Assembly (NCBI GenBank): GCA_964651525.1
Contig: CAZYWN010000011.1
Span: forward strand, 1 to 14,572
DNA from: an uncultured Candidatus Saccharibacteria bacterium
GTDB lineage: Bacteria > Patescibacteriota > Minisyncoccia > Phycocordibacterales > UBA2135
Direction: 5' to 3'
DNA: 14,572 nt
Below the pieces are notes generated by a model that worked only from the letters and a program-made list of their open reading frames with translations, was not told the DNA's origin and ran no database searches. This document shows, one piece after another, positions 1 through 12,901 of this stretch. How positions within the stretch are numbered: position 1 is the first letter of the stretch; each line of letters starts with the position of its first letter. The translations under genes and the position numbers were made by a program.

Positions 1-203
1 GGATGCTCATTTTTCATGCGCGCGGCGTACGCCGCCCTTGCTTCTTCAGGGCAGTAATGGTTCGCATAGTCATACCGCCCTCCGCCGTCACCAACAAAAG
101 TACAGCTGGGGCAGGAACACTGGTGCGCGGACTGCAGAGCCGGAATCCAAGGGATTTCCCCTCCGCACACGCCGCATTTGAGCGGTTCATGAATAAATGC
201 CAC
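1..203 (-). CDS. Partial small Cys-rich protein (3' end cut by window edge), putative zinc-ribbon-like, function unknown
   Basis: Not in the supplied track because it runs off the edge. GTG at 203 is preceded by AAGGAG with a 6-nt spacer and by two in-frame TAA stops. Translation VAFIHEPLKCGVCGGEIPWIPALQSAHQCSCPSCTFVGDGGGRYDYANHYCPEEARAAYAARMKNEH has a CxxC...CxCxxC...C pattern. The overlapping + strand track ORF 3..230 looks like antisense noise. Confidence 0.45.
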   Translation of the reverse strand, partial: MAFIHEPLKCGVCGGEIPWIPALQSAHQCSCPSCTFVGDGGGRYDYANHYCPEEARAAYAARMKNEH

Positions 204-300
204 TTTCTTCTCCTTGCTGGTGGGGAATAGAGATTATTACTGAAATCTATGATAAGCGTACTTTATGTTCAAAAAAAATCAATTCCGAACAAGTTACATT

Positions 301-384
301 TGGTGCGCGGGAGAGGACTTGCACCTCCACGCCTTGCGGCATATGCCCCTCAAGCATACGTGTATACTGTTTCACCACCCGCGC
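301..384 (-). tRNA. tRNA-Leu (anticodon GAG), class II with long variable arm, CCA encoded
   Basis: Reverse complement is GCGCGGG TG GTG AAACAGTATA CAC G TATGC TTGAGGG GCATA TGCCGCAAGGCGT GGAGG TGCAAGT CCTCT CCCGCGC A CCA. It has a 7-bp acceptor stem, a 5-bp anticodon stem, loop anticodon GAG, a 13-nt variable arm with GCC/GGC stem and a 5-bp T stem. The D-loop lacks the usual GG and the T-loop reads TGC instead of TTC (see findings). Confidence 0.8.
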
Positions 385-426
385 ATTTGACAGTATGTAG
401 TATATAGTATTTTGTATATCGGGTAA

Positions 427-461
427 AGCCCCGCCCCGCAATTGCGGGGCGGGGCTTTTTC
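427..461. terminator. Rho-independent terminator hairpin downstream of rplS (bidirectional shape)
   Basis: AGCCCCGCCCCGC (427-439), loop AATT, GCGGGGCGGGGCT (444-456): a 13-bp GC-rich stem. It is flanked by a T-run on the + side (TTTTTCT) and an A-run upstream. It sits 22 nt past the rplS stop on the minus strand. Confidence 0.75.
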
Positions 462-482
462 TCAAAAAATCCGGAATGATTA

Positions 483-941
483 TTATTTTTCTTCCGCGTC
501 GTTCTTTTCATTCGTGTCATTTCCTCCGAAGGAGGACCCGCCTTCGGCGGGCGATATTCGTGTATTCGTGTCGTGTTCTTTATACGAAACTGCCGCGAAC
601 TCCGCGAGTCCCTTCATCTTGCGGCGCGTATCTTTCGCCGACTTGTCGCGGATATAGTAGAGCTTCGCGCGGCGCACCTTCGCGCGGCGGACAACTTCAA
701 TTGTATCAATCACCGGAGAATAAAGCGGAAATATTTTTTCCACGCCAACTCCTGATGCGATTTTACGCACCGTAAAAGTGCCTCCGGCTTCCGTGCCGTG
801 CTTTCGCGCAATAACAAGCCCTTCAAACGCCTGAAGGCGAGTTTTACCCTTCTCAAGAATCTTCTGCCATACGCGGACGGTATCACCCGAGCGAAGGTCA
901 ATCTTTGCGCGTTCTTCGGTGTTGATGGGGGAGAATTTCAT
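483..941 (-). CDS. rplS: 50S ribosomal protein L19 (bL19) with an unusual ~40-aa C-terminal extension
   Basis: The 152-aa ORF carries the L19 core [83 protein letters not shown]. The tail [39 protein letters not shown] is encoded by repeat-like DNA. Confidence 0.95.
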
Positions 942-943
942 AA

Positions 944-1040
944 TTTAAGATTTATGATATAAGATTTAAGATTTTCCAAAACCAAAAAATAACGCAGAAA
1001 AAACTTTTAAAATCCTAAATCTTATATGTTAAATGCTAAA
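944..1040. repeat. Inverted pair of tandem heptamer arrays (TTTAAGA-type / TNCTAAA-type) in the rluA-family to rplS gap
   Basis: Left array is TTTAAGA TTTATGA TATAAGA TTTAAGA (944-971). Right array is TCCTAAA TCTTATA TGTTAAA TGCTAAA (1013-1040). Positions 957-975 pair with 1009-1027 (19 bp, 1 mismatch). Confidence 0.7.
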
Positions 1041-1056
1041 TTACCTTACCACGTCC

Positions 1057-1803
1057 CTATTCTAAACGCAAGCCAGGGAACTTTTTCTTCGCATATCGCG
1101 CCATATCATCCGCCAAGGGCGCCTCAAGGCGCATGCGGTTTCCACTCGGCAGAGAGAGGTTAATCGCGAACGCATGGAGCGCGAGGCGGCCCATTTCGGG
1201 AGGGCATGGATACTTTGGCGCGTAGAGCGCGTCGCAGAGCACGGGGTGCCCGATTGCCTTCAGGTGCACTCGTATCTGGTGCGTGCGCCCTGTCTTTGGA
1301 AATACGGAAAGAAAACTTTCCTCATCATTCCGCGCTTCGGTTTTATAGAGCGTCCGCGACTCGCGCTTCTCGCCGCGCGCGGTGGGAAGCACCGACTTGC
1401 GGCGAAAATCCTCGGGGCTTCTCCCAATGGGCATATCTATTTCCCCTTCGCGCTGTTCCACTCTCCCGTACACGATTGTTTTATATTCTTTCTCAATCGT
1501 CCTGTCCTGAAATGATTTTTTAAGAAATTCAAAGACCTTCTGTGTCTTGGCAAGTACCAAAACGCCGGATGTGTCTTTATCCAGCCGGTGCACAATGCCC
1601 GGACGCGGAATCGGCGCGCCCTTTGGCGTCCGCATCGGCTCCCCCACTCCTTCCATTTCCGGGTACCGCGCAAGCACCCAATCGGCGACCGTGCCTCCGA
1701 TGCGCTCGGCGGGCGGGGTTCCCTCCGCGCCGTGCACGAGCATTCCTGCGGGTTTGTTTATGGCAAGAATAGATTCATCTTCATATACAATAGTGGGTTC
1801 CAT
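1057..1803 (-). CDS. RluA-family pseudouridine synthase (no N-terminal S4 domain)
   Basis: The 248-aa ORF has family motifs AINKPAGMLVH, GIVHRLDKDTSGVLVLAKT and RTHQIRVHLKAIGHPVLCDALY. Confidence 0.9.
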   Translation of the reverse strand: MEPTIVYEDESILAINKPAGMLVHGAEGTPPAERIGGTVADWVLARYPEMEGVGEPMRTPKGAPIPRPGIVHRLDKDTSGVLVLAKTQKVFEFLKKSFQDRTIEKEYKTIVYGRVEQREGEIDMPIGRSPEDFRRKSVLPTARGEKRESRTLYKTEARNDEESFLSVFPKTGRTHQIRVHLKAIGHPVLCDALYAPKYPCPPEMGRLALHAFAINLSLPSGNRMRLEAPLADDMARYAKKKFPGLRLE

Positions 1804-1820
1804 AATGTACTATCGTAACA

Positions 1821-1860
1821 CAAAAAAGCCGACCCGCGCGAAGAAAATACGCGGGCCGGC
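1821..1860 (-). terminator. Rho-independent terminator after uppS
   Basis: On the minus strand, GCCGGCCCGCG / CGCGGGTCGGC forms an 11-bp stem (one G-U) with an 11-nt loop, followed by TTTTTTGTG. It lies between the uppS stop (1925) and the rluA-family start (1803). Confidence 0.7.
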
Positions 1861-1924
1861 AATGAATAAACCGACCGAAAAACGCGCCGGATGTCATTTC
1901 AATCTCCCTTCGGATGTGGTTTTT

Positions 1925-2617
1925 TTATTTTCCGAAATTGCGCTTGCGGCGCGCATACTCGGCAAGCACGCCCTGAAACTCCTCTTTGGTGAAGTCGGGC
2001 CAGAGCGTATCGCGAAAAATCAATTCGCTGTACGCGGATTCCCATAGGAGAAAATTTGAAAGTCGTATTTCTCCTCCTGTGCGCAAAATAAAGTCTGGAT
2101 CGGGGAAGCCTTTTCGGCGCGAAGAGAGGTGCTTTTCAAAGTCACTTTCCTGAAACTTAACCAACAGGTGAGGATAGTGCCCCCATTGAGCCATAAACGA
2201 AAGCGCCGCCTGGAAAATGTCCGCTCGCCCGCCGTAGGAAAGCGCAAGCCCAAGATGGAAAAGCCCGTTCTTTTCTGTTTTTTTCTCCGCTTTTTTGACA
2301 AGCTTTTTAATATCTTTTGGGAGGCGCCTTTGGTCGCCAAGAATAGAGAGCCGCACGCCTTCGCCACAGAGCTCATCAATCTCGTTCCCGAGCGCGCGAC
2401 GGAAAAGATCCATGAGGAGCGCAACTTCTTCCTCGCTTCTCTGCCAGTTTTCGGTAGAAAAAACATATGCAATGACGTGCGTAACGCCGGCATCCCGCGC
2501 CCACCCAAGAAATTCCTTGAATTTCTTGTAACCGGCGAAATGCCCGCCGCCACGCCTATTGCCGTCCAAGATGACGCCAATGCACTGCGGCGCTTCCTCA
2601 AATGAGCGGATTTCCAT
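1925..2617 (-). CDS. uppS: Isoprenyl transferase / undecaprenyl-diphosphate synthase
   Basis: cis-prenyltransferase motifs are present: VILDGNRRGGGH, FSTENWQRSEEEV, RTGGEIRLSNFLLWESAYSELIF, LWPDF, RKRNFG. The start is set at ATG 2617 (GGAGGAG 5 nt upstream) rather than the track GTG at 2620. Confidence 0.9.
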   Translation of the reverse strand: MEIRSFEEAPQCIGVILDGNRRGGGHFAGYKKFKEFLGWARDAGVTHVIAYVFSTENWQRSEEEVALLMDLFRRALGNEIDELCGEGVRLSILGDQRRLPKDIKKLVKKAEKKTEKNGLFHLGLALSYGGRADIFQAALSFMAQWGHYPHLLVKFQESDFEKHLSSRRKGFPDPDFILRTGGEIRLSNFLLWESAYSELIFRDTLWPDFTKEEFQGVLAEYARRKRNFGK

Positions 2618-2683
2618 CACATCTCCTCCATAGCGGATGTTTGTGGTTTACGTCTTTTGCTAAAATACCACATAGATATCATG

Positions 2684-2718
2684 TTGTCCATACTCCTTCC
2701 CGATGCTATACTCTCCTT
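2684..2718 (+). promoter_or_regulatory. Candidate promoter for tsaE giving a leaderless mRNA
   Basis: TTGTCC (2684-2689), 17-nt spacer, TGC-TATACT (hexamer 2707-2712), then exactly 6 nt (ctcctt) to ATG 2719. There is no Shine-Dalgarno. Confidence 0.45.
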
Positions 2719-3171
2719 ATGGAAAAAGGTGCTGACACGCATACTCGGGAAGAAACGACCCATCGCGCGAATGATTTTATAAAAGGTCTCGTTCCACGCG
2801 AAAACATGGCGACAGTCGTCGCACTCTACGGCGATTTGGGGAGCGGAAAGACGACATTTGTGCAATCCGCGGCGAAAGCGCTCGGCGTTGACGCGACAAT
2901 CATCAGCCCGACGTTCGTCATTGAGCGCGTGTATAAATTAAAAAACCAGCCGTTTGAACATCTCATTCACATTGACTGCTATCGCATAGACGCAAGCAAA
3001 GAAATCGCGCTTCTCGGCTGGGACGAAAAAATCGCCAATCCGAGAAACCTTATTTTCGTAGAGTGGGCGGAGAGGATAGAGGGGATACTTCCCAAAGGCA
3101 CGATAAGAATATATTTTGAACACGCGGGGGAAACAACGCGAAAAATAAAAATTCTAAATTCTAATTTCTAA
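2719..3171 (+). CDS. tsaE: tRNA t6A37 biosynthesis ATPase TsaE (YjeE family)
   Basis: The 150-aa ORF from ATG 2719 has the Walker A motif LYGDLGSGKTTFVQ, then SPTFVIERVY, HIDCYRI and FVEWAERI. The track start at 2602 overlaps uppS on the other strand and adds a non-conserved extension. Confidence 0.85.
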   Translation: MEKGADTHTREETTHRANDFIKGLVPRENMATVVALYGDLGSGKTTFVQSAAKALGVDATIISPTFVIERVYKLKNQPFEHLIHIDCYRIDASKEIALLGWDEKIANPRNLIFVEWAERIEGILPKGTIRIYFEHAGETTRKIKILNSNF

Positions 3172-3293
3172 TTTCTAAACCCTAAACAATATCAAAACCT
3201 AAATGTTCTAAATTCAAAACAGGTGTTTCAGATTTTGAGATTAAAAAATTTGAATTTGTTTAGGATTTAGAGTTTAGAGCTTAGGATTTCTAT
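3151..3293. repeat. Inverted pair of tandem heptamer arrays forming a long imperfect hairpin in the tsaE to polA gap
   Basis: Left array is ATTCTAA ATTCTAA TTTCTAA TTTCTAA ACCCTAA (3151-3185). Right array is TTTAGGA TTTAGAG TTTAGAG CTTAGGA (3259-3286). TCTAAACCCTAAACAA pairs with TTGTTTAGGATTTAGA (1 mismatch). An inner pair AAATTCAAA / TTTGAATTT is also present. Confidence 0.75.
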
Positions 3294-3318
3294 TATTTTG
3301 TGTGAAACATCACGCTCA

Positions 3319-5700
3319 ATGAAACAAATAAAACCAAAACGCCTTGTCTTAATAGACGCCCACGCCATCCTCCACCGCGCCTATCACGCGTTGCCTGAAT
3401 TCACTTCACGGACGGGAGAACCGACGGGTGCCCTCTACGGTCTCTCCGCGATGGTGATGAAACTCATCAACGATTTGAAGCCGGACTATATTGTCGCGTG
3501 CTATGACATGGCGGGGCCGACATTCCGCCACGAAGCGTACGAACAATACAAAGCGAAGCGCCCAAAAGCCGAGGACGATTTGATTCTCCAAATGAACCGC
3601 TCGCGCGACATCTTCCGCGCGTTTGACATCCCCGTTTATGAAAAATCGGGGTTTGAAGCGGATGATGTTATCGGTACGATAGTAAAAGAGACCGAAAAAG
3701 AGTGCCGCGCGGGCGGACTTGAAGTCGTCATCGCCTCGGGCGACATGGACACGCTTCAGCTTGTCTCCGGAAAAAACGTTACCGTCTACACTCTTCGCAA
3801 AGGAATTTCCGATACCATCCTCTACGACGAGGGTACGGTGAAAAAACGCTACGGATTTCCGCCCGCGCTTGTCGCTGACTATAAAGGACTTCGCGGCGAC
3901 CCGTCCGATAATATTATCGGCGTCCCCGGCATCGGAGAAAAGACGGCAACCGCGCTCATACAAGAGTTCGGCGACATTGAAACAATCTATAAGAAACTCA
4001 AAAAAAATCCTGATGAGTTTTTGGAGAAAGGATTCAAGAAAAGAATCGTGGAGATTTTGAAAGAGAACGAGGAGGAGGCGCTTTTTTCAAAAACACTCGC
4101 GACCATCCGCCGAGACGCGCCGATAGATTTCCAAATGCCCGCGGAAACATGGCGGGAAAGTTTTTCTCCTGAAAAAGTAAAGAAGCTTTTCCAAGAGCTT
4201 GATTTTAGGACGCTCGGCACGCGGGCCGAAAATCTTGTAACAAAAAAAGCCGCCGATGAAACATCGGAGGAAGAATTCCCCGAAAAGTTGCCGCTTGGGC
4301 GACCTTCCGAAGAGGCGGGAGACGATATCCTTCGTGAAACAGCGCTCGCCGTGTGGGTTCTTGACTCAAACAACATCGCTCTTGGGAAAGAAGGCGTCTT
4401 GGAATTCACGGGGAAGGAAACGCTTGCGGACGCGCGCGCGCATATCCTGTCGCTCTTGAAGAATCAAGGAACGCTTAGCGTCTATACGGACATGGAGCTT
4501 CCGCTCATTCCCATTCTCCTTTCCGCGGAAAAACAGGGCATTTTGATTGACGTCCCGTACTTGAAAGAACTCTCCGCGAAACTGCATACGGAGCTTGAAT
4601 CGCTTTCCCAGAAAATATGGACGCTCGCGGGAACGCGCTTCAATATCAACTCTCCGCAACAGCTGGGACAGATTCTTTTTGAACATCTGAAACTGGAACG
4701 GAAAGGCATCAAGAAAACCGTCGGCGGCGCCATTTCAACGCGCGAGTCGGAGCTCCAGAAACTGAAAGGTCAGCATGAAATCATAGAAGTGCTTTTGCGC
4801 TATCGTGAATTGCAGAAACTTCTTTCCACCTACATTGATAACCTTCCGGAGATGGTGGATGCCGATGGCCGTCTTCACACAACATTCGTCCAGACAGGCA
4901 CCACGACGGGGCGGCTTTCTTCGCAGAATCCCAATCTCCAGAACATCCCGATTAAAGGAGAGTATGGACGCGAAATCCGCCGCGCGTTCGTCGCGGAGAA
5001 AGGACACACGCTTGCCGCGTTTGATTATTCCCAAATTGAGCTTCGCGTTCTGGCGATTCTTTCAAAAGATAAGCGGCTTCTTGAAACGTTTGAGAAAGGG
5101 AAAGACATCCACGCGGCAGTCGCCTCGTCCGTGTTCGGCGTTCCCGAAGCGGAGGTGACGAAGGAGATGCGCCGGAAAGCAAAGGTGATAAACTTCGGTA
5201 TCCTCTACGGCATGGGCGTTACCAGTTTGCAGAAAAGTTTGGGCGGCACGCGCGAGGAGGCGCAGATTTTTTATGATAATTATTTCAAAAGATTTCCCGA
5301 GGTCACGCACTTTATAGAAGACACGAAGCGAACCGCGACAATCAAAGGATATACGGAGACATTGTTCGGGCGGCGGCGGTATGTAGAAGGATTGCGCTCG
5401 CCTATCCCCTATATCCGCGCTGGAGCAGAACGGATGGCGGTGAACGCGCCGATTCAAGGCACTGCCGCGGACATTATTAAAAAAGCGATGCTCGCTGTGG
5501 ATGCCGCTCTCCAAAAAGAAAACCTCGCAACGCGCGCGCACCTTGTTCTCCAAGTGCATGACGAATTGATTTACGAAATTGAAGACGAGGCGCTCGCGCG
5601 CGCGCTTCCCTTGATACAAAAAGAAATGGAGGGGGTCGTTCATGAAAAAATCCCGTTTGGCGTCAGCGTCGCGCACAGCAAGAATTGGGGAGAAATTTAA
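3319..5700 (+). CDS. polA: DNA polymerase I (5' nuclease plus polymerase domains; 3'-5' exonuclease motifs not evident)
   Basis: 793 aa from ATG 3319 (MKQIKPKRLVLIDAHAILHRAYHA). The 5' nuclease region has GFEADDVIGT and GIGEKTA. Polymerase motifs are A DYSQIELRVLA, B RRKAKVINFGILYGMG and C QVHDELIYE. No DxE (Exo I) motif is visible between residues ~300 and 430. Confidence 0.95.
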   Translation: MKQIKPKRLVLIDAHAILHRAYHALPEFTSRTGEPTGALYGLSAMVMKLINDLKPDYIVACYDMAGPTFRHEAYEQYKAKRPKAEDDLILQMNRSRDIFRAFDIPVYEKSGFEADDVIGTIVKETEKECRAGGLEVVIASGDMDTLQLVSGKNVTVYTLRKGISDTILYDEGTVKKRYGFPPALVADYKGLRGDPSDNIIGVPGIGEKTATALIQEFGDIETIYKKLKKNPDEFLEKGFKKRIVEILKENEEEALFSKTLATIRRDAPIDFQMPAETWRESFSPEKVKKLFQELDFRTLGTRAENLVTKKAADETSEEEFPEKLPLGRPSEEAGDDILRETALAVWVLDSNNIALGKEGVLEFTGKETLADARAHILSLLKNQGTLSVYTDMELPLIPILLSAEKQGILIDVPYLKELSAKLHTELESLSQKIWTLAGTRFNINSPQQLGQILFEHLKLERKGIKKTVGGAISTRESELQKLKGQHEIIEVLLRYRELQKLLSTYIDNLPEMVDADGRLHTTFVQTGTTTGRLSSQNPNLQNIPIKGEYGREIRRAFVAEKGHTLAAFDYSQIELRVLAILSKDKRLLETFEKGKDIHAAVASSVFGVPEAEVTKEMRRKAKVINFGILYGMGVTSLQKSLGGTREEAQIFYDNYFKRFPEVTHFIEDTKRTATIKGYTETLFGRRRYVEGLRSPIPYIRAGAERMAVNAPIQGTAADIIKKAMLAVDAALQKENLATRAHLVLQVHDELIYEIEDEALARALPLIQKEMEGVVHEKIPFGVSVAHSKNWGEI

Positions 5701-5821
5701 ATGAAAGATACCAATATACAAATGAGTACGAATGCAACGAATGAATACGAATACCGAGGATGCCACATTTGCAGCCATTAGTATTATTCGTATATATTCG
5801 TAGATTGGTATCTTGTATTTT
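5701..5821. repeat. Palindromic ACGAAT-word intergenic cassette, copy 1 (fills the polA stop to holA-like start gap)
   Basis: AAGATACCAAT (5705-5715) pairs perfectly with ATTGGTATCTT (5804-5814). The arms are built of degenerate ...ACGAAT / ATTCGT... words. Positions 5701-5752 match 13907-13958 at 47/52. Confidence 0.8.
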
Positions 5822-6541
5822 ATGCTTTATTTATTCACCGGCTCGGATAAAGAAAAAGCGCGGGGGAAATTCCGCGCGGATGTGAACGCGCTCCGCGCGA
5901 AAAAGCCGGACGCCTCGTTTGTTGAGATGGACGAGCTGTCGTTTTCCTCCGCGCGGATTCTAGAACTTCTTGCGACGCGCGGAATGTTTGAAAAAGCGGT
6001 TATCGCCGCGTTCAGAAATCTTTTGAATAACGAGGAAGCCGCCGCGTTTCTCGCAAAAAACGCGAAAGGGCTCGCGTCGTCGGAAAACGTCTTTTTGGTG
6101 TGCGAAGAGGACGCGACGAAAACCGCCCTTGCCCCCTTGGAAAAACACGCGGATAAAGTGTGGCGCTTCACGGCGCAAGCGGCGCGCAAAGAATTTCCCA
6201 TCGTTTTCCCGTTCGCCGAAGCGTTTCTCGCTCGCGACAAGAAAAAAGCGTGGATTCTTCTTCAAAGAATACTCTCCGAAAATATCCCGCCGGAGCAGAT
6301 TTTCGGCGCGCTTTTCTGGCAGGTAAAAACCGCGGCGCTCGTAAAAAAAGCGCAAAAAATGAACTCGGTCGGGGCACTCGGGCTGAAACCGTTTGTCCAA
6401 AGCAAGGCGGAACGCCTGTGCCGCGGCTATTCCGAGCAAGAGCTCACGGAACTTCTTGGAGAAATCGTTGGCCTCTACCATTCCCGCGAAGAAGGCGGCC
6501 TAGAACCCGCGCTCGCGCTGGAGCGGCTCGTATTGCGATAA
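5822..6541 (+). CDS. holA: DNA polymerase III delta subunit-like protein (short form)
   Basis: 239 aa from ATG 5822. The N-terminus MLYLFTGSDKEKARGKF and the C-terminal helical region (AFLARDKKKAWILLQRILSENIPPEQIFGALFWQVKTAALVKKA) resemble HolA layout. It has no P-loop and sits directly after polA. Similarity was judged by eye only. Confidence 0.6.
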   Translation: MLYLFTGSDKEKARGKFRADVNALRAKKPDASFVEMDELSFSSARILELLATRGMFEKAVIAAFRNLLNNEEAAAFLAKNAKGLASSENVFLVCEEDATKTALAPLEKHADKVWRFTAQAARKEFPIVFPFAEAFLARDKKKAWILLQRILSENIPPEQIFGALFWQVKTAALVKKAQKMNSVGALGLKPFVQSKAERLCRGYSEQELTELLGEIVGLYHSREEGGLEPALALERLVLR

Positions 6542-6627
6542 AACAAGAAAGCATACGGCGCTACGCGCCTAATCAACGAAGCAAATCTGTTTCGTTGATT
6601 TTTTGTTTCTTTGCTTCGTTGTTTTAT
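6538..6627. repeat. Nested-hairpin GCTTCGTTG-word module, copy 1 (between convergent holA-like and TrmB-like genes)
   Basis: Outer stem is ATAAAACAAGAAAGCA (6538-6553) with TGCTTCGTTGTTTTAT (6612-6627), 14/16 paired. Core AAGCATACGGCGCTACGCGCCTAA (6549-6572) is 23/24 identical to 11904-11927. It contains the hairpin GGCGC-TAC-GCGCC. Confidence 0.7.
6572..6605 (+). terminator. Rho-independent terminator for the holA-like gene (inner hairpin of the module)
   Basis: ATCAACGAA (6572-6580), 10-nt loop, TTCGTTGAT (6591-6599), followed by TTTTTTG. Confidence 0.7.
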
Positions 6628-7454
6628 TGCTTCGTTGCTTCGTTTTCTTCTTGCCGCGCGATAAGTGTCCGCAAAAGCTCATTCGCATCAATAGAGCGCG
6701 AATTGTCCTGCATAAACTGGAACAATGCGAGTATCATTTTCTGAATTTCTGAGTTTCTGATTTCAATGATAATTCCTTCATTCAACGCCAAAAGATAAAG
6801 AGATTTTTTGAATATAAACATCTGGCTGCCGTGCTCAAAATATTTCGGGTCAATAACGTTGAAACGCGTCGTTCGTCCTTCAAAATCCTTTGCCCACTCC
6901 GCTCCAAACTTTGCCGTCTGTTCTTCAAACCAATTTTCGGGAGCAATCGCCTCAACAATGAGGCGGTTGTTTTTTATTGCACGATTGAGACGGTTTGTTT
7001 CGGCTACGGAAAAATATTTTTCCCAGCCGATATTTGAGACGGACCCTTGGTAACCATACAACCGCTCCCCCTTATTTTCTTCTATAATCTCATGGAGAAG
7101 GGTTTTTATCGCTTTCTCGCCACGATGGATGACGATTGTCGCGTCCGCCTGCCCGTACACTTCTTCGCGCCCTTCTGGAATGCCTAAAAGCGCGTGTTTT
7201 GCATCAGCGATAGCGCGGTCTATATCGCGCTCTTCGCTAACACGCCAGCGTTTTTTGCCATCATGCGTGTGATATTCTGCAAGTCCCCTCTTTTTCAGGT
7301 TTTTCAGGATTGCATATACGGCAGGGCGTGATACCCCCGTTTGTCGGGCCAGTAAAAGCGGCGTATTCGCGTCGCCACGGAGCGCCAAAAGCGCCTTTTC
7401 TTCTTTGTCGCTTAGCCCAAGAGCCCTTAATTTGTCGTCTTTTTTCGTTGCCAT
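6624..7454 (-). CDS. TrmB-like winged-helix transcriptional regulator with uncharacterised C-terminal domain
   Basis: The 276-aa ORF has the N-terminal wHTH LGLSDKEEKALLALRGDANTPLLLARQTGVSRPAVYAILKNLKKRGLAEY, typical of the TrmB N-terminal domain. The last residues EENEATKQ and the stop are encoded by the GCTTCGTTG repeat words. Confidence 0.8.
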   Translation of the reverse strand: MATKKDDKLRALGLSDKEEKALLALRGDANTPLLLARQTGVSRPAVYAILKNLKKRGLAEYHTHDGKKRWRVSEERDIDRAIADAKHALLGIPEGREEVYGQADATIVIHRGEKAIKTLLHEIIEENKGERLYGYQGSVSNIGWEKYFSVAETNRLNRAIKNNRLIVEAIAPENWFEEQTAKFGAEWAKDFEGRTTRFNVIDPKYFEHGSQMFIFKKSLYLLALNEGIIIEIRNSEIQKMILALFQFMQDNSRSIDANELLRTLIARQEENEATKQ

Positions 7455-7489
7455 GCCTCAAGTATAGCAAAATCCATCCTATCTGTAAA
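7455..7489 (-). promoter_or_regulatory. Near-consensus promoter of the TrmB-like gene, leaderless geometry
   Basis: The minus strand reads TTTACA, 17-nt spacer, TGC-TATACT, 6 nt (tgaggc), then ATG (7454). There is no Shine-Dalgarno. Confidence 0.55.
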
Positions 7490-7504
7490 GTTTTTTAGAC
7501 AGAT
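7481..7504. promoter_or_regulatory. Inverted repeat ATCTGT-N12-ACAGAT, candidate operator overlapping the regulator's -35
   Basis: ATCTGT (7481-7486) and ACAGAT (7499-7504) lie in the divergent intergenic region. The left half-site overlaps the TTTACA -35 of the minus-strand promoter. Confidence 0.3.
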
Positions 7505-7572
7505 TGTAATACATAAAACTTCTTGATAAATAAGGAATTTTTGCGGGAAATATTCAAATACAATACAAATTT

Positions 7573-7601
7573 TTTACTGTCAATGCCGTACGTGGTAAAA
7601 T
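7573..7601 (+). promoter_or_regulatory. Candidate promoter for the two-gene membrane protein operon
   Basis: TTTACT (7573-7578), 17-nt spacer, TGG-TAAAAT (hexamer 7596-7601). The ~45-nt leader carries a GAGAGGGG Shine-Dalgarno before ATG 7652. Confidence 0.35.
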
Positions 7602-7651
7602 ATAGGCAGAAGAAGTCCCTTGAAGCACACCTGAACAGAGAGGGGAACATC

Positions 7652-8254
7652 ATGAACGGACTGATGCGGTTGTGGAAAGCAAACATGTTGACAACGATTT
7701 TGCAAGCGGTAGTTGCGGCGGGGTTCTACTATATCACCGTGACTTCGCCGCGCGGGAAGACGGAAGGAAGCGTCGAGCATGTCATTTTCACGCTTTTTGA
7801 GCTCCTTCTGGTTTCGCTTTTGGCGGGCATGCTCGTAAGCACCGCGATGATAATGGATAGGAAAACTCATGAGAAAGAGAAGGGCCGGTTCACGGACCTA
7901 CTCTTCGTGTATCCGGGCTGGGTTTCCGTCTTCGCGCTCTTTTGCGCTCTCTGGGCCGTTATGGCAGGCGCGTATGGAGCGGAAACATATTCCGTATTCG
8001 TTAAGGGGTGGAAATCCGGTGGTATTGGCGCCTTTCATGCGGCCTTTGACGTTTTCACGTTTCTGTTCGCCTTCTTGTGCTACGGCGGCATGTTCGCATT
8101 CCTGGGCATCGGCAGTTTCGTCTGCGTCCTCAAGGCGGCGGACGAAAACAATGCTCCGCGGTGGGTATATGGCGTAGCCGCCTTGCCCTTCGGCGCGGGT
8201 GTCATTGCGGGCGGCGCGCTCATCCTCACATACAACATACTCACCAGAAAATAA
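7652..8254 (+). CDS. Uncharacterised polytopic membrane protein (about 5 predicted TM segments)
   Basis: 200 aa from ATG 7652 (GAGAGGGG 5 nt upstream), in frame with track ORF 7523..8254. Hydrophobic stretches are separated by short charged loops (e.g. DRKTHEKEKGRFTD). I recognise no family. Confidence 0.7.
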   Translation: MNGLMRLWKANMLTTILQAVVAAGFYYITVTSPRGKTEGSVEHVIFTLFELLLVSLLAGMLVSTAMIMDRKTHEKEKGRFTDLLFVYPGWVSVFALFCALWAVMAGAYGAETYSVFVKGWKSGGIGAFHAAFDVFTFLFAFLCYGGMFAFLGIGSFVCVLKAADENNAPRWVYGVAALPFGAGVIAGGALILTYNILTRK

Positions 8255-8264
8255 GGAGAACCTC

Positions 8265-9146
8265 ATGAAACGCGAAACGCTCTCAATCGTTCTCTCGTGC
8301 ATGCTTGGCGCCTTTATCGGCGCGCTCGTGGCGCTCCAGCTCGGCGGATACTTCTGGTTCATCGGCGCGATTCTGGGCGGCGCCGTCGCCTATATAGCGG
8401 TGGATTTCCGCGATTGGGCCGCCGCCTTCCGTTACGCCTGGCGGCGAACCATCGCTTGGCGGCCATACTCGCCATACTGGAAGACGCTCGGCGTGGCGCT
8501 CGTCTCCGGAATCTGTGTGATGCCGACTATCATAGCCGCGACATATCTGCTCATCGTCTTCGTGGCGTTTGCGAGTGGAGTTAGGGGCCACGACTTTAGC
8601 GTCATTCTCACCGGCCCACTCGTTGCGTACATCTCGCTATTTCTGGCATTCATGCTTGGTGCTTTCCTCGCGCTCCCCGAAGTGCTCCAGTCAGTCAGCT
8701 TCAATCTTTATGAAGTACGCGAGAAACTCATCGGGAGAACGCCGACCCGTAAAGGATATAAAGCAAATCTTCTCGCTTTCCGGAAAAAGTGCTGGGGTGT
8801 TGCGAAGTGGGGAAACCTCGCAAGCGTCCTCTTTCTCTCGGTATTCGGCGTGGTGGGAGGCGTGGTATACTGCATCATCAAAGCACCGCGTATCACGGCG
8901 GCAACATGGCGCGGCGGCAAGGTGGCAAGCATTCTTTTCTTCGCCTTCGCCCGATACATGTTCCTCTACGCGCATTCAAGCCGGCGCGTGCTCTGCTTCA
9001 CAGACGCCGCGCTCGGCGCCGCGGCGGGGTATCAGTTCGGCAGTGCGCTCGCCGGTGCAGTGATTGGCGGCGCCCTCGGGCTCCTGAACTACGAGCTCGT
9101 CTCGGTGCGCTGGCTGGGGCTTGCGCCATACCGTGCGCGGAAATAG
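8265..9146 (+). CDS. Uncharacterised membrane protein with glycine-zipper-like TM segments at both termini
   Basis: 293 aa from ATG 8265. AAGGAG (8253-8258) overlaps the stop of the upstream gene, suggesting tight coupling. The N-terminus has GAFIGALVALQLGGYFWFIGAILGGAVAYIAV and the C-terminus has GAAAGYQFGSALAGAVIGGALGLL. The basic loops are Arg/Trp-rich. Confidence 0.75.
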   Translation: MKRETLSIVLSCMLGAFIGALVALQLGGYFWFIGAILGGAVAYIAVDFRDWAAAFRYAWRRTIAWRPYSPYWKTLGVALVSGICVMPTIIAATYLLIVFVAFASGVRGHDFSVILTGPLVAYISLFLAFMLGAFLALPEVLQSVSFNLYEVREKLIGRTPTRKGYKANLLAFRKKCWGVAKWGNLASVLFLSVFGVVGGVVYCIIKAPRITAATWRGGKVASILFFAFARYMFLYAHSSRRVLCFTDAALGAAAGYQFGSALAGAVIGGALGLLNYELVSVRWLGLAPYRARK

Positions 9147-9171
9147 CTTCTGTTCTTTTTTCTTTTCCTTA

Positions 9172-9227
9172 CACCGCCGTGTCAAGGTCCGTCATACGGA
9201 TCAAACACGGCGGTTTTTTTATTTTTT
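9172..9227 (+). terminator. Rho-independent terminator after the membrane protein operon
   Basis: CACCGCCGTGT (9172-9182) pairs with ACACGGCGGT (9205-9214) around a loop holding a small TCCGT/ACGGA hairpin. It is followed by TTTTTTTATTTTTT. Confidence 0.7.
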
Positions 9228-9260
9228 AGCGTTTTCTCTTTTTTTTGCTTCGTTGTTTTG

Positions 9261-9275
9261 TGGTATAGTATATTC
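9261..9275 (+). promoter_or_regulatory. Extended -10 box giving a leaderless start for the small-membrane-protein cluster
   Basis: TGG-TATAGT (hexamer 9264-9269), then 6 nt (atattc) to ATG 9276. There is no Shine-Dalgarno. Confidence 0.4.
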
Positions 9276-9476
9276 ATGCGGCTCAATCGGTATCAGATAG
9301 AACTTGTATCAAAGTATTTCGCCGATTTGTCTAAAATCATAATCGCGTCGGTGGTAATCGTTTATTTTGTCCCTGCACAAGGAGCCGTTGTGACGCCTTT
9401 GGTTTTTCTTGTAAGCATAGTGGTCGCTATTTCGTGCATCTTGATTGGGGTTTCCCTGTCAAAACAACTTATATGA
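9276..9476 (+). CDS. Small membrane protein (66 aa, 2 predicted TM)
   Basis: MRLNRYQIELVSKYFADLSKIIIASVVIVYFVPAQGAVVTPLVFLVSIVVAISCILIGVSLSKQLI. It is in frame with track ORF 9258..9476. ATG 9276 is preferred because of the -10 geometry. Confidence 0.55.
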   Translation: MRLNRYQIELVSKYFADLSKIIIASVVIVYFVPAQGAVVTPLVFLVSIVVAISCILIGVSLSKQLI

Positions 9477-9556
9477 ATTTTCTTTTGGTTTTTTATTTAA
9501 CTATCGGATTTTTTGCCACGGCATTTTATATCTGGGCAGTAAATCATAAAGAATAA
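9473..9556 (+). CDS. Candidate 27-aa hydrophobic micro-protein
   Basis: Below the track size cut-off. Its ATG overlaps the upstream TGA as ATGA (9473-9476), a classic coupling arrangement. The peptide MNFLLVFYLTIGFFATAFYIWAVNHKE is a single TM-like segment. Confidence 0.3.
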   Translation: MNFLLVFYLTIGFFATAFYIWAVNHKE

Positions 9557-9564
9557 TATTTACT

Positions 9565-9678
9565 ATGGAATGGACCTATACTTCGTTTGAGATATTTGGT
9601 GTTGTCGCCTCGCTCATCATGCTTGGCGTTATCTTCTTTTATAGACCTAAAAAACGAAAGAACAGCGAACTTTCTTAA
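9565..9678 (+). CDS. Candidate 37-aa single-TM micro-protein
   Basis: Below the track cut-off. MEWTYTSFEIFGVVASLIMLGVIFFYRPKKRKNSELS has a hydrophobic core followed by a basic tail (positive-inside pattern). It ends 7 nt before the next ATG. Confidence 0.35.
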   Translation: MEWTYTSFEIFGVVASLIMLGVIFFYRPKKRKNSELS

Positions 9679-9685
9679 AAAGAGT

Positions 9686-10042
9686 ATGCTTTCCATCTTC
9701 CCCACCCTACTTGCCTACGGGCTTTTCGCGCCGTTTATCATACGCATCGCGCTCGGCGCGCTTTGCGTGTATGGCGCGCTCACGCTCGCGAACGCTGACC
9801 TGCGCAAGGAAAAACACTCCCCCTATCTTTGGGGTGTACTCATACTCCCTGCGATAGTAGGAGGAGCGTTCGTCCTCACGGGGTTTTTCACACAAATCGG
9901 CGCGCTCATACTCATGGCGCGCATCGCGCTTGAAATCTATACTGTGCCGACGAAGCGTACTACTTGCATTCTTGCTTTCGTTATGGCGCTTTCGCTCCTT
10001 TTTTCCGGCGCGGGCTTCCTCGCGTTTGATTTGCCACTCTAG
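9686..10042 (+). CDS. DoxX-like small integral membrane protein
   Basis: 118 aa from ATG 9686 (in frame with track ORF 9587..10042): MLSIFPTLLAYGLFAPFIIRIALGALCVYGALTL... Four hydrophobic segments and the RIALG motif resemble the DoxX family, judged by eye. Confidence 0.65.
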   Translation: MLSIFPTLLAYGLFAPFIIRIALGALCVYGALTLANADLRKEKHSPYLWGVLILPAIVGGAFVLTGFFTQIGALILMARIALEIYTVPTKRTTCILAFVMALSLLFSGAGFLAFDLPL

Positions 10043-10099
10043 TGCCACGGCACTCGCAGAACAACGCAGATAGTAATGCAGAAAAAGACGCAGAAAAAT

Positions 10100-10127
10100 C
10101 AAAAAACCGCCAGAAGGCGGTTATTTA
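10100..10127. terminator. Bidirectional terminator between the DoxX-like gene (+) and tRNA-Lys (-)
   Basis: ACCGCC (10106-10111), loop AGAA, GGCGGT (10116-10121). An A-run lies upstream, giving TTTTTTGATTTTT on the minus strand directly after the tRNA. TTATTT follows on the + strand. Confidence 0.7.
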
Positions 10128-10128
10128 A

Positions 10129-10201
10129 TGCCCTCAGCAGGATTCGAACCTGCGACCGTCTCCTTAAAAGGGAGCTGCTCTACCGACTGAGCTATGAGGG
10201 C
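10129..10201 (-). tRNA. tRNA-Lys (anticodon UUU), CCA not encoded
   Basis: Reverse complement is GCCCTCA TA GCTC AGTCGGTA GAGC A GCTCC CTTTTAA GGAGA CGGTC GCAGG TTCGAAT CCTGC TGAGGGC A. It is a canonical cloverleaf with GG in the D-loop and a TTCGAAT T-loop. Confidence 0.95.
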
Positions 10202-10502
10202 ATGGAGGATTACATCATTTAAGCACATATTTTCTAATTTCTCCAGTTTCCGCACGTTTTTAATGACTTTTCCAGTTTCCAGCGTCTAGTTTTCTAGAAT
10301 CCAGAGTTATCCCCACCCTTCCCCTTGCGCGGGTGAAGCGGCGCGCGGTATGATTAAAAAGGATAGGAATAGAACCTCCTGAAGACAACGTGTCCCGCGT
10401 CAAGGGTTATCACTCGGTTTCTTTCTAGGGATTCTCTTCCATACAGTTCTTTCTGCTCCTTTACCCACAATCTAATATACAAAACATGTAAAATCCATGT
10501 TT

Positions 10503-10537
10503 GAAGGACCACCTCTCTGGCTGGTCCTTCTTTTTTT
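10503..10537 (+). terminator. Orphan plus-strand Rho-independent terminator with no upstream plus-strand ORF
   Basis: GAAGGACCA (10503-10511), 10-nt loop, TGGTCCTTC (10522-10530), followed by TTTTTTT (10531-10537). Confidence 0.65.
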
Positions 10538-10575
10538 ATGTGTCTTCCCTGTATTTCGACAACAATGTATTTTTT

Positions 10576-10647
10576 ATTCGCATGTGCGACATTCGTAGAG
10601 TCGCATTCCCCTTTTCCGACTCGATGTCGGAAAAGGGGAAGACGCAC
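10576..10647. repeat. Two-hairpin repeat module, copy A (downstream flank of the DUF502-like gene)
   Basis: ATTCGCATGTGCGACATTCGTAGAGTCGCATTCC contains hairpin 1: TGCGAC (10585-10590) with GTCGCA (10600-10605). Hairpin 2 is CCCCTTTTCCGAC-TCGAT-GTCGGAAAAGGGG (10608-10638), followed by AAGACGCACAAA. Confidence 0.8.
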
Positions 10648-10674
10648 AAAAAAGCGCCTTTTTACGGGCGCTTT
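10645..10674 (-). terminator. Rho-independent terminator of the DUF502-like gene
   Basis: On the minus strand, AAAGCGCC / GGCGCTTT forms the stem. The stop codon (10662-10664) lies in the loop. TTTTTTGTG follows, and that U-tract is the complement of the conserved A-rich tail of repeat copy A. Confidence 0.6.
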
Positions 10675-11303
10675 CCTTTTTTCACGAGAACAGCCACTGA
10701 TTCAAGTTCATCCGCTGCCGGATAATTACTCCCTCCGGCGCCGCAGGCGACTACGATACTGAATACTTCCTGCATGGTGAGCATCGGCAATGGAAACACA
10801 ACCTCGTTCCGGAGCGTATGGATAAACCCCGTGGTGAAATTGGGCGCTGTCGGTTCAAAACACCGGCAATACCCTTCCCGTGGATAACCGACAACGAACC
10901 CCATCTTCTCCGTGTTTTCCCTTCCTTCAGGAAAAAATATCGCCGACGAGATGAATATCGTCTTCTTGTTCTTGAAAATAGATGAAAATTGAGAAAGAGC
11001 GTCCCGTAAGAGCGAATAGCCGATAACAATTCGCTCTACCGGTTTTTCCACAAACCGCCCGAGGCGCGTTTTGGCAAGTACCCCAATGGAGAAACACAAC
11101 GCGAGCGCGATTGAGAACTCAAGCCCTTTCGCGACATACTCGTTTAAGGCGACTCCCATTGAGGCAATCTTTACCAACGGCCCCGTAATGAGCGATATCG
11201 TATTGAGGAGCATATTCAAAAGCGCAAAAGGAAACGACACCGAAAAAGCGATGATGAAGCCCCCTATCAAAGACGCAATGAAAAAATCCTTGATTCTTCG
11301 CAT
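10662..11303 (-). CDS. DUF502-family membrane protein
   Basis: 213 aa with N-terminal TM helices. The C-terminal block FEPTAPNFTTGFIHTLRNEVVFPLPMLTMQEVFSIVVACGAG resembles the DUF502 signature (PTTPNPTSG...VP...MS.E.A...SGG), judged by eye. AGGAAGG Shine-Dalgarno lies 7 nt before the ATG. Confidence 0.8.
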   Translation of the reverse strand: MRRIKDFFIASLIGGFIIAFSVSFPFALLNMLLNTISLITGPLVKIASMGVALNEYVAKGLEFSIALALCFSIGVLAKTRLGRFVEKPVERIVIGYSLLRDALSQFSSIFKNKKTIFISSAIFFPEGRENTEKMGFVVGYPREGYCRCFEPTAPNFTTGFIHTLRNEVVFPLPMLTMQEVFSIVVACGAGGSNYPAADELESVAVLVKKGKRP

Positions 11304-11351
11304 CTATGGCCTTCCTGCGATTGTGAAAAACAGGGTTGACATCTGGGGTTA

Positions 11352-11380
11352 TGTATAGCACATTTCCCGCGTGTTGGAAA
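11352..11380 (-). promoter_or_regulatory. Candidate promoter of the DUF502-like gene
   Basis: The minus strand reads TTTCCA, 17-nt spacer, TGC-TATACA, with about 45 nt of leader to ATG 11303. Confidence 0.3.
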
Positions 11381-11420
11381 CAACGCCCCCAACGGGCGTC
11401 ACGTCGCGTTCCCGTCTTAA

Positions 11421-11495
11421 ATTCGTATGTGCGACATTCGTAGTGTCGCATTCCGTTTTTTCGGACTCGATGTCCGAAAAAACGGAAGACACAAA
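11421..11495. repeat. Two-hairpin repeat module, copy B (upstream flank of the DUF502-like gene)
   Basis: ATTCGTATGTGCGACATTCGTAGTGTCGCATTCC is 32/34 identical to copy A. Hairpin 2 is CCGTTTTTTCGGAC-TCGAT-GTCCGAAAAAACGG (11453-11485), followed by AAGACACAAAG. It is in the same orientation as copy A. Confidence 0.8.
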
Positions 11496-11527
11496 GAAAA
11501 ACCTCTCCCGCGTGAGCGAGAGAGGTT
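11493..11527 (-). terminator. Rho-independent terminator of the 65-aa gene
   Basis: AACCTCTC-C-CGC GTGA GCG-A-GAGAGGTT forms a hairpin with a GNRA-type loop. On the minus strand it is followed by TTTTTCTTTGTG, which is the complement of the tail of repeat copy B. Confidence 0.65.
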
Positions 11528-11565
11528 TTCTGTCTGCAGACAGTTGAGACGGGTCGTAAGAGAAA

Positions 11566-11763
11566 TTACTGCCCTTCTACTGCTGGCACCTCTGCGGCAC
11601 CGTCAACGGCCGCGTCAGCCGCTGCCGCTTGGTCAGCCACGGCGTCCAAGGAGTTGTCCGCCGCAGGCGCTGCGTCGTCTTTCCCCATGAGGAAATATCC
11701 CCCGAGGACGACCAACGCCAAAACCGCAAAAATAGCAACGTTGCGATTGAGAAGTTTGTCCAT
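11566..11763 (-). CDS. Small N-terminally anchored protein with Ala/Asp-rich acidic tail
   Basis: 65 aa: MDKLLNRNVAIFAVLALVVLGGYFLMGKDDAAPAADNSLDAVADQAAAADAAVDGAAEVPAVEGQ. It has one TM/signal-anchor and a low-complexity tail. It has its own terminator, and I recognise no homolog. Confidence 0.5.
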   Translation of the reverse strand: MDKLLNRNVAIFAVLALVVLGGYFLMGKDDAAPAADNSLDAVADQAAAADAAVDGAAEVPAVEGQ

Positions 11764-11891
11764 ACTGAAAAACGATTTATATTATGTAGAGTTAAACACT
11801 ACTCTTATCGACCCTTAAATCCGGATTTGTAAGGATTCGTTGTTAGTATAGCAAAAAACATTCTTCATATGCAAGTTATACACAGGAAAGC

Positions 11892-11998
11892 AGCGAAGCA
11901 ATAAAGCATACGGCGCTTCGCGCCTAAGCAAAAAAGCAAATCGCTTCTTTGTTTCGTTGCTTCGTTGCTTTATTGCTTCTTTGCTTCATTGCTTTATT
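11892..11998. repeat. Nested-hairpin GCTTCGTTG-word module, copy 2 (divergent gap upstream of the SpoU-family gene)
   Basis: Core AAGCATACGGCGCTTCGCGCCTAA (11904-11927). The outer stem GAAGCAATAAAGCA (11895-11908) pairs with TGCTTTATTGCTTC (11966-11979), a perfect 14 bp. It is followed by GCTTCGTTGCTT-type words. Confidence 0.7.
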
Positions 11999-12031
11999 CC
12001 AAATTCAGGCCTTAAATGCTTCAATACCCAA

Positions 12032-12523
12032 ATGGGACAACAACAAAAAGAAATCAGGCGAGTATATGTCATATTGCACAACATCCGTAGCGTTTTGAAC
12101 GTCGGCTCTATCTTCCGCACCGCGGATGCGGCGGAGGTAGCGAAAATATATCTTACTGGATTTACACCCGCGCCGATTGACCGATTCGGACGAAAAAGAA
12201 AGGACTTTGAAAAATCCGCGCTCGGCGCGGAAAAAACCGTTGTATGGGAACAAAGAGAAGATTTTTTTCCTCTTCTTAACGAATTAAAAATGAAAGGGTT
12301 CCTCGTTATAGGGATTGAGCAAGCGCCAGAGGCGAAGGACTATAAAGAAATACGCGCGGAGTCCCCTCTTGCGTTTGTATTTGGTAACGAAGTCACGGGG
12401 CTTCCGCCGGAAGTCCTTTCCGTGTGCGATGAAATCGCGGAAATCCCGATGCGCGGCAAAAAAGAGTCGCTCAATGTCTCCGTCGCCGCCGGCATCGCGC
12501 TTTTTAGGATGCTTGACATTTGA
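12032..12523 (+). CDS. SpoU/TrmH-family RNA 2'-O-methyltransferase
   Basis: 163 aa from ATG 12032. The three SPOUT motifs are NIRSVLNVGSIFRTADAA, FVFGNEVTGLPPEVL and IPMRGKKESLNVSVAAGIALF. The track start 11957 lies inside the repeat module and is rejected. Confidence 0.9.
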   Translation: MGQQQKEIRRVYVILHNIRSVLNVGSIFRTADAAEVAKIYLTGFTPAPIDRFGRKRKDFEKSALGAEKTVVWEQREDFFPLLNELKMKGFLVIGIEQAPEAKDYKEIRAESPLAFVFGNEVTGLPPEVLSVCDEIAEIPMRGKKESLNVSVAAGIALFRMLDI

Positions 12524-12541
12524 CAAATTAAGCGGTAGCAT
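12513..12541 (+). promoter_or_regulatory. Weak candidate promoter for the 86-aa membrane protein gene
   Basis: TTGACA (12513-12518; a second TTGACA lies at 12520-12525), 17-nt spacer, TAGCAT (12536-12541). It overlaps the end of the SpoU-family gene. Confidence 0.25.
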
Positions 12542-12579
12542 ACTCGCAGACTCCAAAAACTTTCACAACGAGAACACAA

Positions 12580-12840: not shown

Positions 12841-12857
12841 ACCGCGCTTCTCATCCT

Positions 12858-12901
12858 AAAGCGCGCGGCGGGACTTTGTCCCCGCCGCGCGCTTTTTTTT
12901 T
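12858..12901 (+). terminator. Strong Rho-independent terminator
   Basis: AAAGCGCGCGGCGGGGAC ... GTCCCCGCCGCGCGCTTT forms a GC-rich stem of about 14 bp with a TTT loop, followed by a 9-nt T-run (12893-12901). Confidence 0.85.

Follow-up and report, generated by a model that had tools for sequence, protein, structure and literature searches.

Among bacterial repeats that travel with a small nuclease-type gene, REPIN-RAYT systems (doublets of repetitive extragenic palindromes, REPs, with their REP-associated tyrosine transposases) consist of short dispersed intergenic repeats that occur as inverted doublets able to form hairpins, with many gene-less copies for each gene-bearing one and with a gene flanked by inverted repeat copies that co-vary with the gene lineage. 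All of these features recur in a family of palindromes that we describe here from a 14,572-nt stretch of DNA (the window) of an uncultured Candidatus Saccharibacteria bacterium (assembly GCA_964651525.1, contig CAZYWN010000011.1, positions 1 to 14,572). Two stop-to-start gaps of the window, between polA and a holA-like gene and between a murE-like and an LTD gene, are each filled by an imperfect palindrome (copies A and B). We consider these palindromes likely to be gene-less members, similar to REPINs or to miniature inverted-repeat transposable elements (MITEs), of a cassette family that carries a GxxExxY nuclease gene in bacteria of the Candidate Phyla Radiation (CPR); the family is widespread in the CPR and apparently undescribed. 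Unlike in REPIN-RAYT systems, the protein is a PD-(D/E)XK nuclease that matches only PF13366 and TIGR04256 and not an HUH/Y1 (IS200/IS605-like) transposase, each arm strings together A+T-rich words of 9-10 nt whereas REPs are single G+C-rich hairpins, and the copies fit flush between a stop codon and the start codon of the following, co-directional gene, the nuclease gene being oriented like its neighbours.

The Correia elements (NEMIS) of Neisseria and the enterobacterial repetitive intergenic consensus (ERIC) sequences are MITEs that offer a second comparison, being, like our palindromes, imperfect, ~100-150 bp long, multi-copy, intergenic and co-transcribed with their neighbours. Correia ends can supply promoter boxes, a role also hinted at for the start-facing end of the present elements. 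In contrast to Correia elements, which duplicate TA, no target-site duplication is seen here, and unlike bacterial MITEs in general the palindromes have no known DDE transposase partner, display an internal word periodicity and possess a full-length form that carries a nuclease gene and is not derived from an insertion sequence (IS). Of the features by which a MITE is recognised, terminal inverted repeats, a small non-coding size and multiple copies are all present and the target-site duplication is absent; a full-length form exists, as do possible internal-deletion intermediates (L049 and L075), but its protein is a PD-(D/E)XK nuclease without known transposase activity.

Copy A occupies the 121 nt between genes whose products match Pfam DNA_pol_A and DNA_pol3_delta_C, respectively, and copy B the 118 nt (13903-14020) between two genes on the minus strand. 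An initial annotation of the window had described the first gap (5701-5821) as an imperfect palindrome filling the whole distance from stop to start and the second as another member of the same kind, and all its coordinates and sequences proved correct. The features are as follows.

5698-5700, plus strand: stop codon (TAA) of polA
5699-5754, plus strand: copy A, stop-proximal arm (nhmmer E = 3.7e-13; terminal motif 5705-5723)
5755-5763, no strand: copy A, centre, a 9-nt loop at the position of the GxxExxY gene in full-length members (compare L044, L073 and L013)
5764-5820, minus strand: copy A, start-proximal arm, inverted (nhmmer E = 1.2e-11; terminal motif 5796-5814)
5822, plus strand: ATG of the holA-like gene (public gene call identical)
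13900-13902, minus strand: ATG of the LTD gene
13905-13959, plus strand: copy B, start-proximal arm, next to the minus-strand LTD gene (nhmmer E = 2.8e-10)
13960-13970, no strand: copy B, centre, an 11-nt loop
13971-14023, minus strand: copy B, stop-proximal arm (nhmmer E = 5.7e-13; terminal motif 14002-14020)
14021-14023, minus strand: stop codon (TAA) of the murE-like gene

The claim of that annotation that AAGATACCAAT (5705-5715) is the exact reverse complement of ATTGGTATCTT (5804-5814) was borne out, and over 54 nt the arms of copy A (5699-5752 and 5767-5820) are 72% complementary. The recurrence is equally real: 5699-5753 and 13905-13959 are 91% identical over 55 nt, copies A and B are related to each other in both orientations, and the four arms, once aligned, have a mean column identity of 77%. 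The repeated word had to be corrected from ACGAAT to TACNAAT, in which the fourth base is free; the full word is (G/A)ATACNAAT, i.e. TACNAAT preceded by G/A and A/T, and it recurs every 8-10 nt. Each arm is an array of 4-5 such words with the terminus AAGATRCMAATMTAC, the five words of the stop-proximal arm of copy A being GATACCAAT, ATACAAAT, GAGTACGAAT, GCAACGAAT and GAATACGAAT. TACNAAT occurs 21 times in the window (5.3 ± 2.5 expected) and the 19-nt terminal motif AAGATRCMAATMTACRAAT four times (0.00 expected). The fit between the genes is close on both sides. In copy A, the polA TAA is separated by 4 nt from AAGATACC, and the plus strand ends in ...ATTCGTAGATTGGTATCTT followed by GTATTTT, which leaves 7 nt between GGTATCTT and the ATG; in copy B, the terminal motif directly adjoins the murE-like stop codon (0 nt) and 8 nt separate the other end from the ATG. 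The window is 99.8% identical to GenBank contig JACOYP010000010.1, from a metagenome-assembled genome (MAG) of the Parcubacteria group (GCA_016181795.1), in which the palindrome is also present.

At three other CPR loci (L044, L073 and L013), the same two arms enclose an open reading frame (ORF) of ~125 codons whose product is a GxxExxY protein (TIGR04256, E = 2e-16; PF13366 PDDEXK_3, E = 7e-18). The unit is built from two inverted arms of 4-5 TACNAAT words each, spaced about one helical turn apart and ending in (A/G)(A/C)GAT(A/G)CNAATATAC; the full-length form measures ~470-540 bp, and in the short form only 9-14 nt lie between the arms. Gene and arms interlock: the nuclease gene begins with an ATG in the last words of one arm and stops in the first word of the opposite arm, and the N-terminus M-x-T-N-D-T-N of the protein is encoded by the arm words themselves.

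In order to avoid ascertainment bias, the association between gene and arms was measured on 80 metagenome loci retrieved via the protein alone, 70 of which had at least 130 nt on both sides. The arm profile matched on both flanks of the GxxExxY gene in 57 of these, on one flank in 8 and on neither in 5. By eye, most of the remaining 13 loci proved to have word arrays as well, in variant or degenerate form and usually to both sides of the gene (e.g., CGGAT/ATCCG, ATCCNAAT/ATTNGGAT, TACGAAC or AAACTACA/TGTAGTTT). GxxExxY was the only cargo found between inverted arms, among loci that had themselves been selected for this family. In 60 non-redundant full-length elements, the neighbouring genes are co-oriented with the nuclease gene in ~93% of cases (left, 43/47; right, 44/46), the upstream stop codon lying 1-3 nt and the downstream ATG 5-9 nt from the element core.

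The residues D73, E83 and K85 are invariant in 36 nuclease sequences and the AlphaFold2 (AF2) model of the protein has a mean predicted local distance difference test score (pLDDT) of 88.6; judged from sequence and model, the nuclease appears intact and looks functional. Foldseek returned weak PD-(D/E)XK fold matches only, to Cas4, lambda-exonuclease-like proteins, EndA and Hjc, and the GxxExxY profile had no match to any solved structure among the PDB sequences. None of the PADLOC models of anti-phage defence matched the CPR protein P0018, and PHROGs holds one corresponding family, of unknown function. The one paper on the family that we found, a 2012 survey of PD-(D/E)XK nucleases, lists PDDEXK_3 (PF13366) as 'function unknown' with multiple horizontal transfers (PMC3424549). 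We found no paper in the searchable literature that ties CPR bacteria to MITEs, or GxxExxY to repeats.

Some loci are more elaborate. A duplicated arm, with two in tandem upstream or downstream, is present at L121 (311-485), L128 (1324-1500), L142, L159 and L188, and at L156, L158, L172 and L178 a full-length element is followed directly by a complete gene-less palindrome.

A scan with the degenerate 19-mer of the terminal motif, using one genome per species and filtering chance matches in unrelated phyla by word content, yielded ~40 true copies, spread over many classes of CPR MAGs, among them Saccharibacteria, Paceibacterota and Doudna-, Yanofsky-, Harrison-, Nomura- and Portnoybacteria; viral contigs yielded one lone motif and no array. 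A one-arm profile resolved these loci into ~25 paired palindromes and ~12 solo arms. On both sides of most copies, the distance from the outer end to the adjacent ORF is between -8 and +3 nt, and most of the ~20 palindromes with assignable neighbours lie between co-directional genes, two between divergent and none between convergent ones. The preference for gene junctions, with both ends near the stop and start codons of the neighbours, therefore holds across the family, and the exact filling of a stop-to-start gap noticed at polA-holA is a family property and not a coincidence of the window. Copies A and B have the paired, inverted, profile-matching arms and the flush placement, two of the marks by which we define the TACNAAT-arm / GxxExxY cassette family, and belong to it.

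Presence and absence at one site could be compared in a pair of relatives whose flanks are 88-90% identical. L133 is filled, with arms and gene between TAA and ATG, whereas L131 is empty at the orthologous site and reads TAA AATATATCT ATG; L131 has an element of its own one gene further on, and L126, which is more distant, has an element at the site filled in L133. No target-site duplication of 3 nt or more was found in any of 43 elements, and 2-nt matches (4/43) were about as frequent as by chance. Arms co-vary with each other and with the gene: arms of one element resemble each other more than they resemble those of other elements (score 23.8 vs 19.4), the own partner is the best-matching arm in 12 of 68 elements, and arm similarity follows protein similarity with a Spearman coefficient of 0.54. 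Gene-less arms, in turn, resemble the full-length element of their own contig; of 61 elements compared, it ranked among the best five for 8 of 12 and had a median rank of 3. In L049 and L075, copies of 190 nt resemble products of internal deletion, with the first and last codons of the nuclease gene joined.

The polA-holA junction itself has been subject to turnover. In L111, whose holA is 89% identical, the gap holds a different palindrome made of TAAGATTT words, and in L113 (holA 59% identical) it holds a third one of AGTATCT words with further arrays nested inside, conservation among these relatives ending exactly at the stop codon and restarting exactly at the ATG. Such turnover at a single junction is easier to reconcile with dispersed repeat families in competition than with a regulatory site under conservation. 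Over 21 kb, the source contig contains at least three TAAGATTT palindromes besides the two TACNAAT palindromes.

In the cassette interpretation that we favour, the conserved words would be recognition sites of the cognate nuclease, which would mobilise or maintain the cassette as a RAYT does for REPINs or a homing endonuclease for its own site. The hairpin potential would be a by-product of inverted word arrays and would be selected against in short copies. Survivors in these compact genomes would be only those insertions that spare the stop codon, the start codon and the expression of the neighbours, and the start-facing end may in part have come to serve a leaderless gene downstream as a -10-like box.

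Several points weigh against this interpretation. That the nuclease recognises and cuts the words and mobilises the cassette is what we infer; to our knowledge a lone 125-aa PD-(D/E)XK domain is not a known transposase, and we know of no insertion mechanism that explains the strict two-sided flushness with stop and start codons together with the co-orientation. A further mark of family membership, a cognate GxxExxY gene with matching arms in the same genome, is absent from the 20.7 kb read of the source contig. The empty/filled comparison is a single pair, for which a precise deletion could stand in place of an insertion. Arms from distant CPR lineages are nearly as similar (49/58) as those within this genome (50/58), which fits strong constraint but also an ancient fixed host element. 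Finally, orienting the gene-less copies with respect to the flanking genes gave 6 of 16, in an assignment by position weight matrix that variable word spacing makes too noisy to decide.

A host expression module, as the initial annotation had suggested, would explain the palindromes by a hairpin that terminates transcription or is cleaved by RNase III, combined with a start-proximal end serving as promoter or re-initiation site for a leaderless gene. We regard this as unlikely. The predicted hairpins are stable, with -32.6 kcal/mol for copy A as RNA (z = -3.6; 0 of 200 shuffles as stable) and -34.3 kcal/mol for copy B (z = -4.8), and a U-rich stretch follows the stem. However, the stems are A+T-rich and 40-50 bp long, and neither copy has the G+C-rich stem and T-run of an intrinsic terminator, while the window contains canonical G+C-rich terminators elsewhere; a terminator or processing hairpin is not supported. 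When 19 gene-less copies were aligned, 84.6% of cells were paired in the full hairpin (shuffles, 86.3 ± 0.6), and compensatory changes were fewer than in shuffles, i.e. there was no covariation. At the five variable N positions, Watson-Crick complementarity was depleted in gene-less copies (15/94, 31.9 ± 4.1 expected), compared with 71/171 (66.8 ± 5.4 expected) in full-length elements, and in 15 of 18 copies the sense RNA folded less stably than the antisense RNA. The words, and not the hairpin, are therefore what is conserved, and RNA-level selection for the hairpin was rejected. Were perfect palindromes unstable or harmful, one would expect just such a depletion of complementarity where the bases of short-loop copies are free to vary. 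The statement that this is not a described RNA family stands, with no Rfam match over the elements at E ≤ 1.

The same result separates the palindromes from two other structured sequences. ORF-bearing intervening sequences of 23S rRNA similarly place a small ORF within inverted repeats in a transcribed unit, with a stem that juxtaposes the flanks, but their place is within rRNA, from which RNase III excises them, whereas the present elements lie at protein-gene junctions and bear no sign of selected pairing. Integron attC sites, too, are imperfect palindromes, of comparable length, and lie between ORFs that are co-oriented and tightly packed. They conserve structure and not sequence, the reverse of what is seen here; and on reading the sequence we found no R/L core boxes and no nearby integrase, and the neighbours are core housekeeping genes.

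The promoter half of the host module idea fared better across the family than in the window. The -10-like hexamer TAGTAT, which the arm end reads in the outward direction when the N of the terminal word is T, is present in 30 of 51 start-facing arm ends (59%) compared with 17 of 58 stop-facing ones (29%; Fisher p = 0.003), and the ATG follows 5-12 nt beyond it, most often 8-9 nt. The copies of the window have TGG(T/C)AT instead of TAGTAT, with TATCTT or CATCTT 7-8 nt before the ATG, and a consensus scan for sigma-70 -35/-10 hexamers with 16-18 nt spacing found none at the start-proximal end of either. The asymmetry between start- and stop-facing ends, which explains part of the arm-arm mismatch pattern, could reflect selection by the host, either for a -10-like box facing outward or simply for a start context rich in A+T; a promoter function of the start-facing end is something we infer. 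The Shine-Dalgarno sequence is indeed missing upstream of both genes, as had been noted, but this is nothing special since only 3-4 of the 15 genes in the window have one. Two further gene starts of the window, those of tsaE (2700-2721) and a TrmB-like regulator (7452-7475), have TATACT, 6 nt and ATG without a Shine-Dalgarno sequence; from such starts, leaderless mRNAs may be common in this organism, and the empty site of L131 similarly reads TAAAAT, 6 nt, ATG. These starts would suit a host module. Nevertheless, cassettes of unrelated words (CACAGAGG, AAACTACA) share the geometry, which is therefore independent of this particular box, and a host module leaves the nested nuclease gene unexplained. 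Annotators should avoid labelling the palindromes as terminators or riboswitch-like RNAs, and the start codons that adjoin them may mark leaderless genes.

A second alternative keeps the nuclease and changes its role. The gene-less palindromes would be intact, symmetric GxxExxY sites, and a cut between the arms, repaired via ~50 nt of arm homology, would copy the gene in, the palindromes themselves spreading by other means. Homing endonuclease genes, free-standing or intron-borne (such as that of the PD-(D/E)XK enzyme I-Ssp6803I), resemble the cassettes in being small selfish nuclease genes between host genes, in host orientation, that interrupt a symmetric site without target-site duplication; they differ in having neither long repeated-word arrays nor abundant gene-less palindromes at unrelated loci. 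Such homing would account for the gene always lying exactly between the arms, for the missing target-site duplication, for the remnants of apparent internal deletion in L049 and L075 and for the likeness of gene-less arms to the full-length element of their contig, and symmetric arrays would suit an oligomeric PD-(D/E)XK enzyme. Against it, the sole polymorphic site differs by arms and gene jointly and not by the gene alone, and at no site was the gene seen to be present in one strain and missing from the palindrome of another. We consider this version improbable, to about the same degree as the host module.

Still less probable, and in our view very much so, is an operator array without mobility, in which a host DNA-binding protein (e.g. 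a ribbon-helix-helix or nucleoid-associated protein) coats words phased by the helical turn and insulates or co-regulates the neighbouring genes. The word spacing of 8-10 nt, the strong conservation of the words but not of their N position across distant CPR lineages, and the lack of selection for pairing agree with this idea. It is contradicted by the near-obligate tie to one nuclease gene family, by the presence/absence polymorphism, by the different word families at one orthologous junction and by flanking genes that are functionally unrelated (polA/holA, murE/LTD, rplM, fusA, TIM). Boxes of LexA, Fur, Zur, DnaA and parS, which served as leads only, are not known to match TACNAAT. TIGR-Tas guide arrays, which came up in the literature, were also rejected on their architecture: here the words measure 9-10 nt without variable spacers, and the neighbourhood has no Nop-domain Tas gene. 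Chance low-complexity sequence or an assembly artefact, suggested by the A+T-rich region (33% G+C), is already refuted by the four motif matches where 0.00 were expected, by ~190 arms in independent assemblies from many studies and by the presence of the element in the GenBank contig.

Distant GxxExxY genes outside the CPR have a similar setting, being co-oriented, tight between housekeeping genes and flanked by inverted arrays of other words. Such cases were found in a Cloacimonadota MAG, Bacteroides finegoldii, Bernardetia and Treponema. In B. finegoldii, the gene lies between radA and a gene for an FAD protein, with CACAGAGGA/CCTCTGTG words. On a plasmid of Sphingomonas parapaucimobilis (NZ_CP155749.1, 482837-483265; L208), it lies between fabD and fabG in an otherwise conserved fabD-fabG-acpP cluster; here only the upstream array, of CGCGAAGG-type words, is visible, and the start codon of fabG is overlapped.

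A broader proposal, which we put forward tentatively and hold to be somewhat short of probable, is that GxxExxY (PF13366) genes define phylum-spanning selfish cassettes. These would be bounded by lineage-specific inverted word arrays (TACNAAT in the CPR, CACAGAGG in Bacteroidota and Cloacimonadota, and others elsewhere), would insert without target-site duplication at the stop-start junctions of operons in host orientation and would spawn gene-less palindromes in abundance, as a nuclease-driven analogue of REPIN-RAYT systems on a different fold. The palindromes would fill most intergenic gaps of some CPR genomes and may supply leaderless promoters. If true, this would provide the large family GxxExxY / PDDEXK_3, of unknown function, with a role and a genomic logic, would explain what several streamlined CPR genomes hold in a large part of their scarce intergenic space, and would make PD-(D/E)XK the third enzyme class generating dispersed palindromic repeats, beside DDE enzymes with MITEs and HUH enzymes with REPINs. 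The strict stop-to-start placement and the co-orientation point to an insertion or selection rule undescribed for other elements.

Other word families occur in the window and its relatives. Palindromes of TAAGATTT words lie at 942-1043 of the window (rplS-rluD gap), at 19373-19483 and 20060-20222 of L001 and at 1555-1645 of L111 (the polA-holA gap mentioned above); on the source contig, those around ruvA fill two gaps, one of them a start-to-start gap between divergent genes. This second dispersed family has no known cargo gene. The tsaE-polA gap (3141-3297) holds a palindrome of the same architecture built on a third word, its left side being made of TTCTAAAT/CCTAAA words and its right side of TTTAGGA/TTTAGAG words. 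The 180-nt composite of L113 (2135-2313) has outer AGTATCT arms that enclose further word arrays (GGGATTTATGATTTGAGATTT and GTTGGGCATTGAGCGTTGGGG) and a CCTGCCGGCAGG hairpin, which suggests that elements nest in each other's centres.

The window contains further repeats. Positions 6541-6660 and 11883-12014, 87% identical over 47 nt, combine a G+C hairpin, GGCGCT(A/T)CGCGCC, with arrays of GCTTCGTT words; the TrmB-like gene overlaps the first with its 3' end, and the GenBank contig lacks 73 nt (~11840-11912 of the window) that include the left arm of the second. A direct repeat at 10576-10657 and 11421-11501 (88% over 43 nt) stands on both sides of a DUF502 gene; it reads ATTCGYATGTGCGACATTCGTAGWGTCGCATTCC, includes ATTCGTA words and has a CCCCTTTTCCGAC...GTCGGAAAAGGGG hairpin after it. 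Lastly, 59 nt inside the rluD-like gene (1245-1303) are missing from the GenBank contig, the gene call there being truncated (194 aa vs 248 aa), which reflects either a strain variant or an assembly difference.

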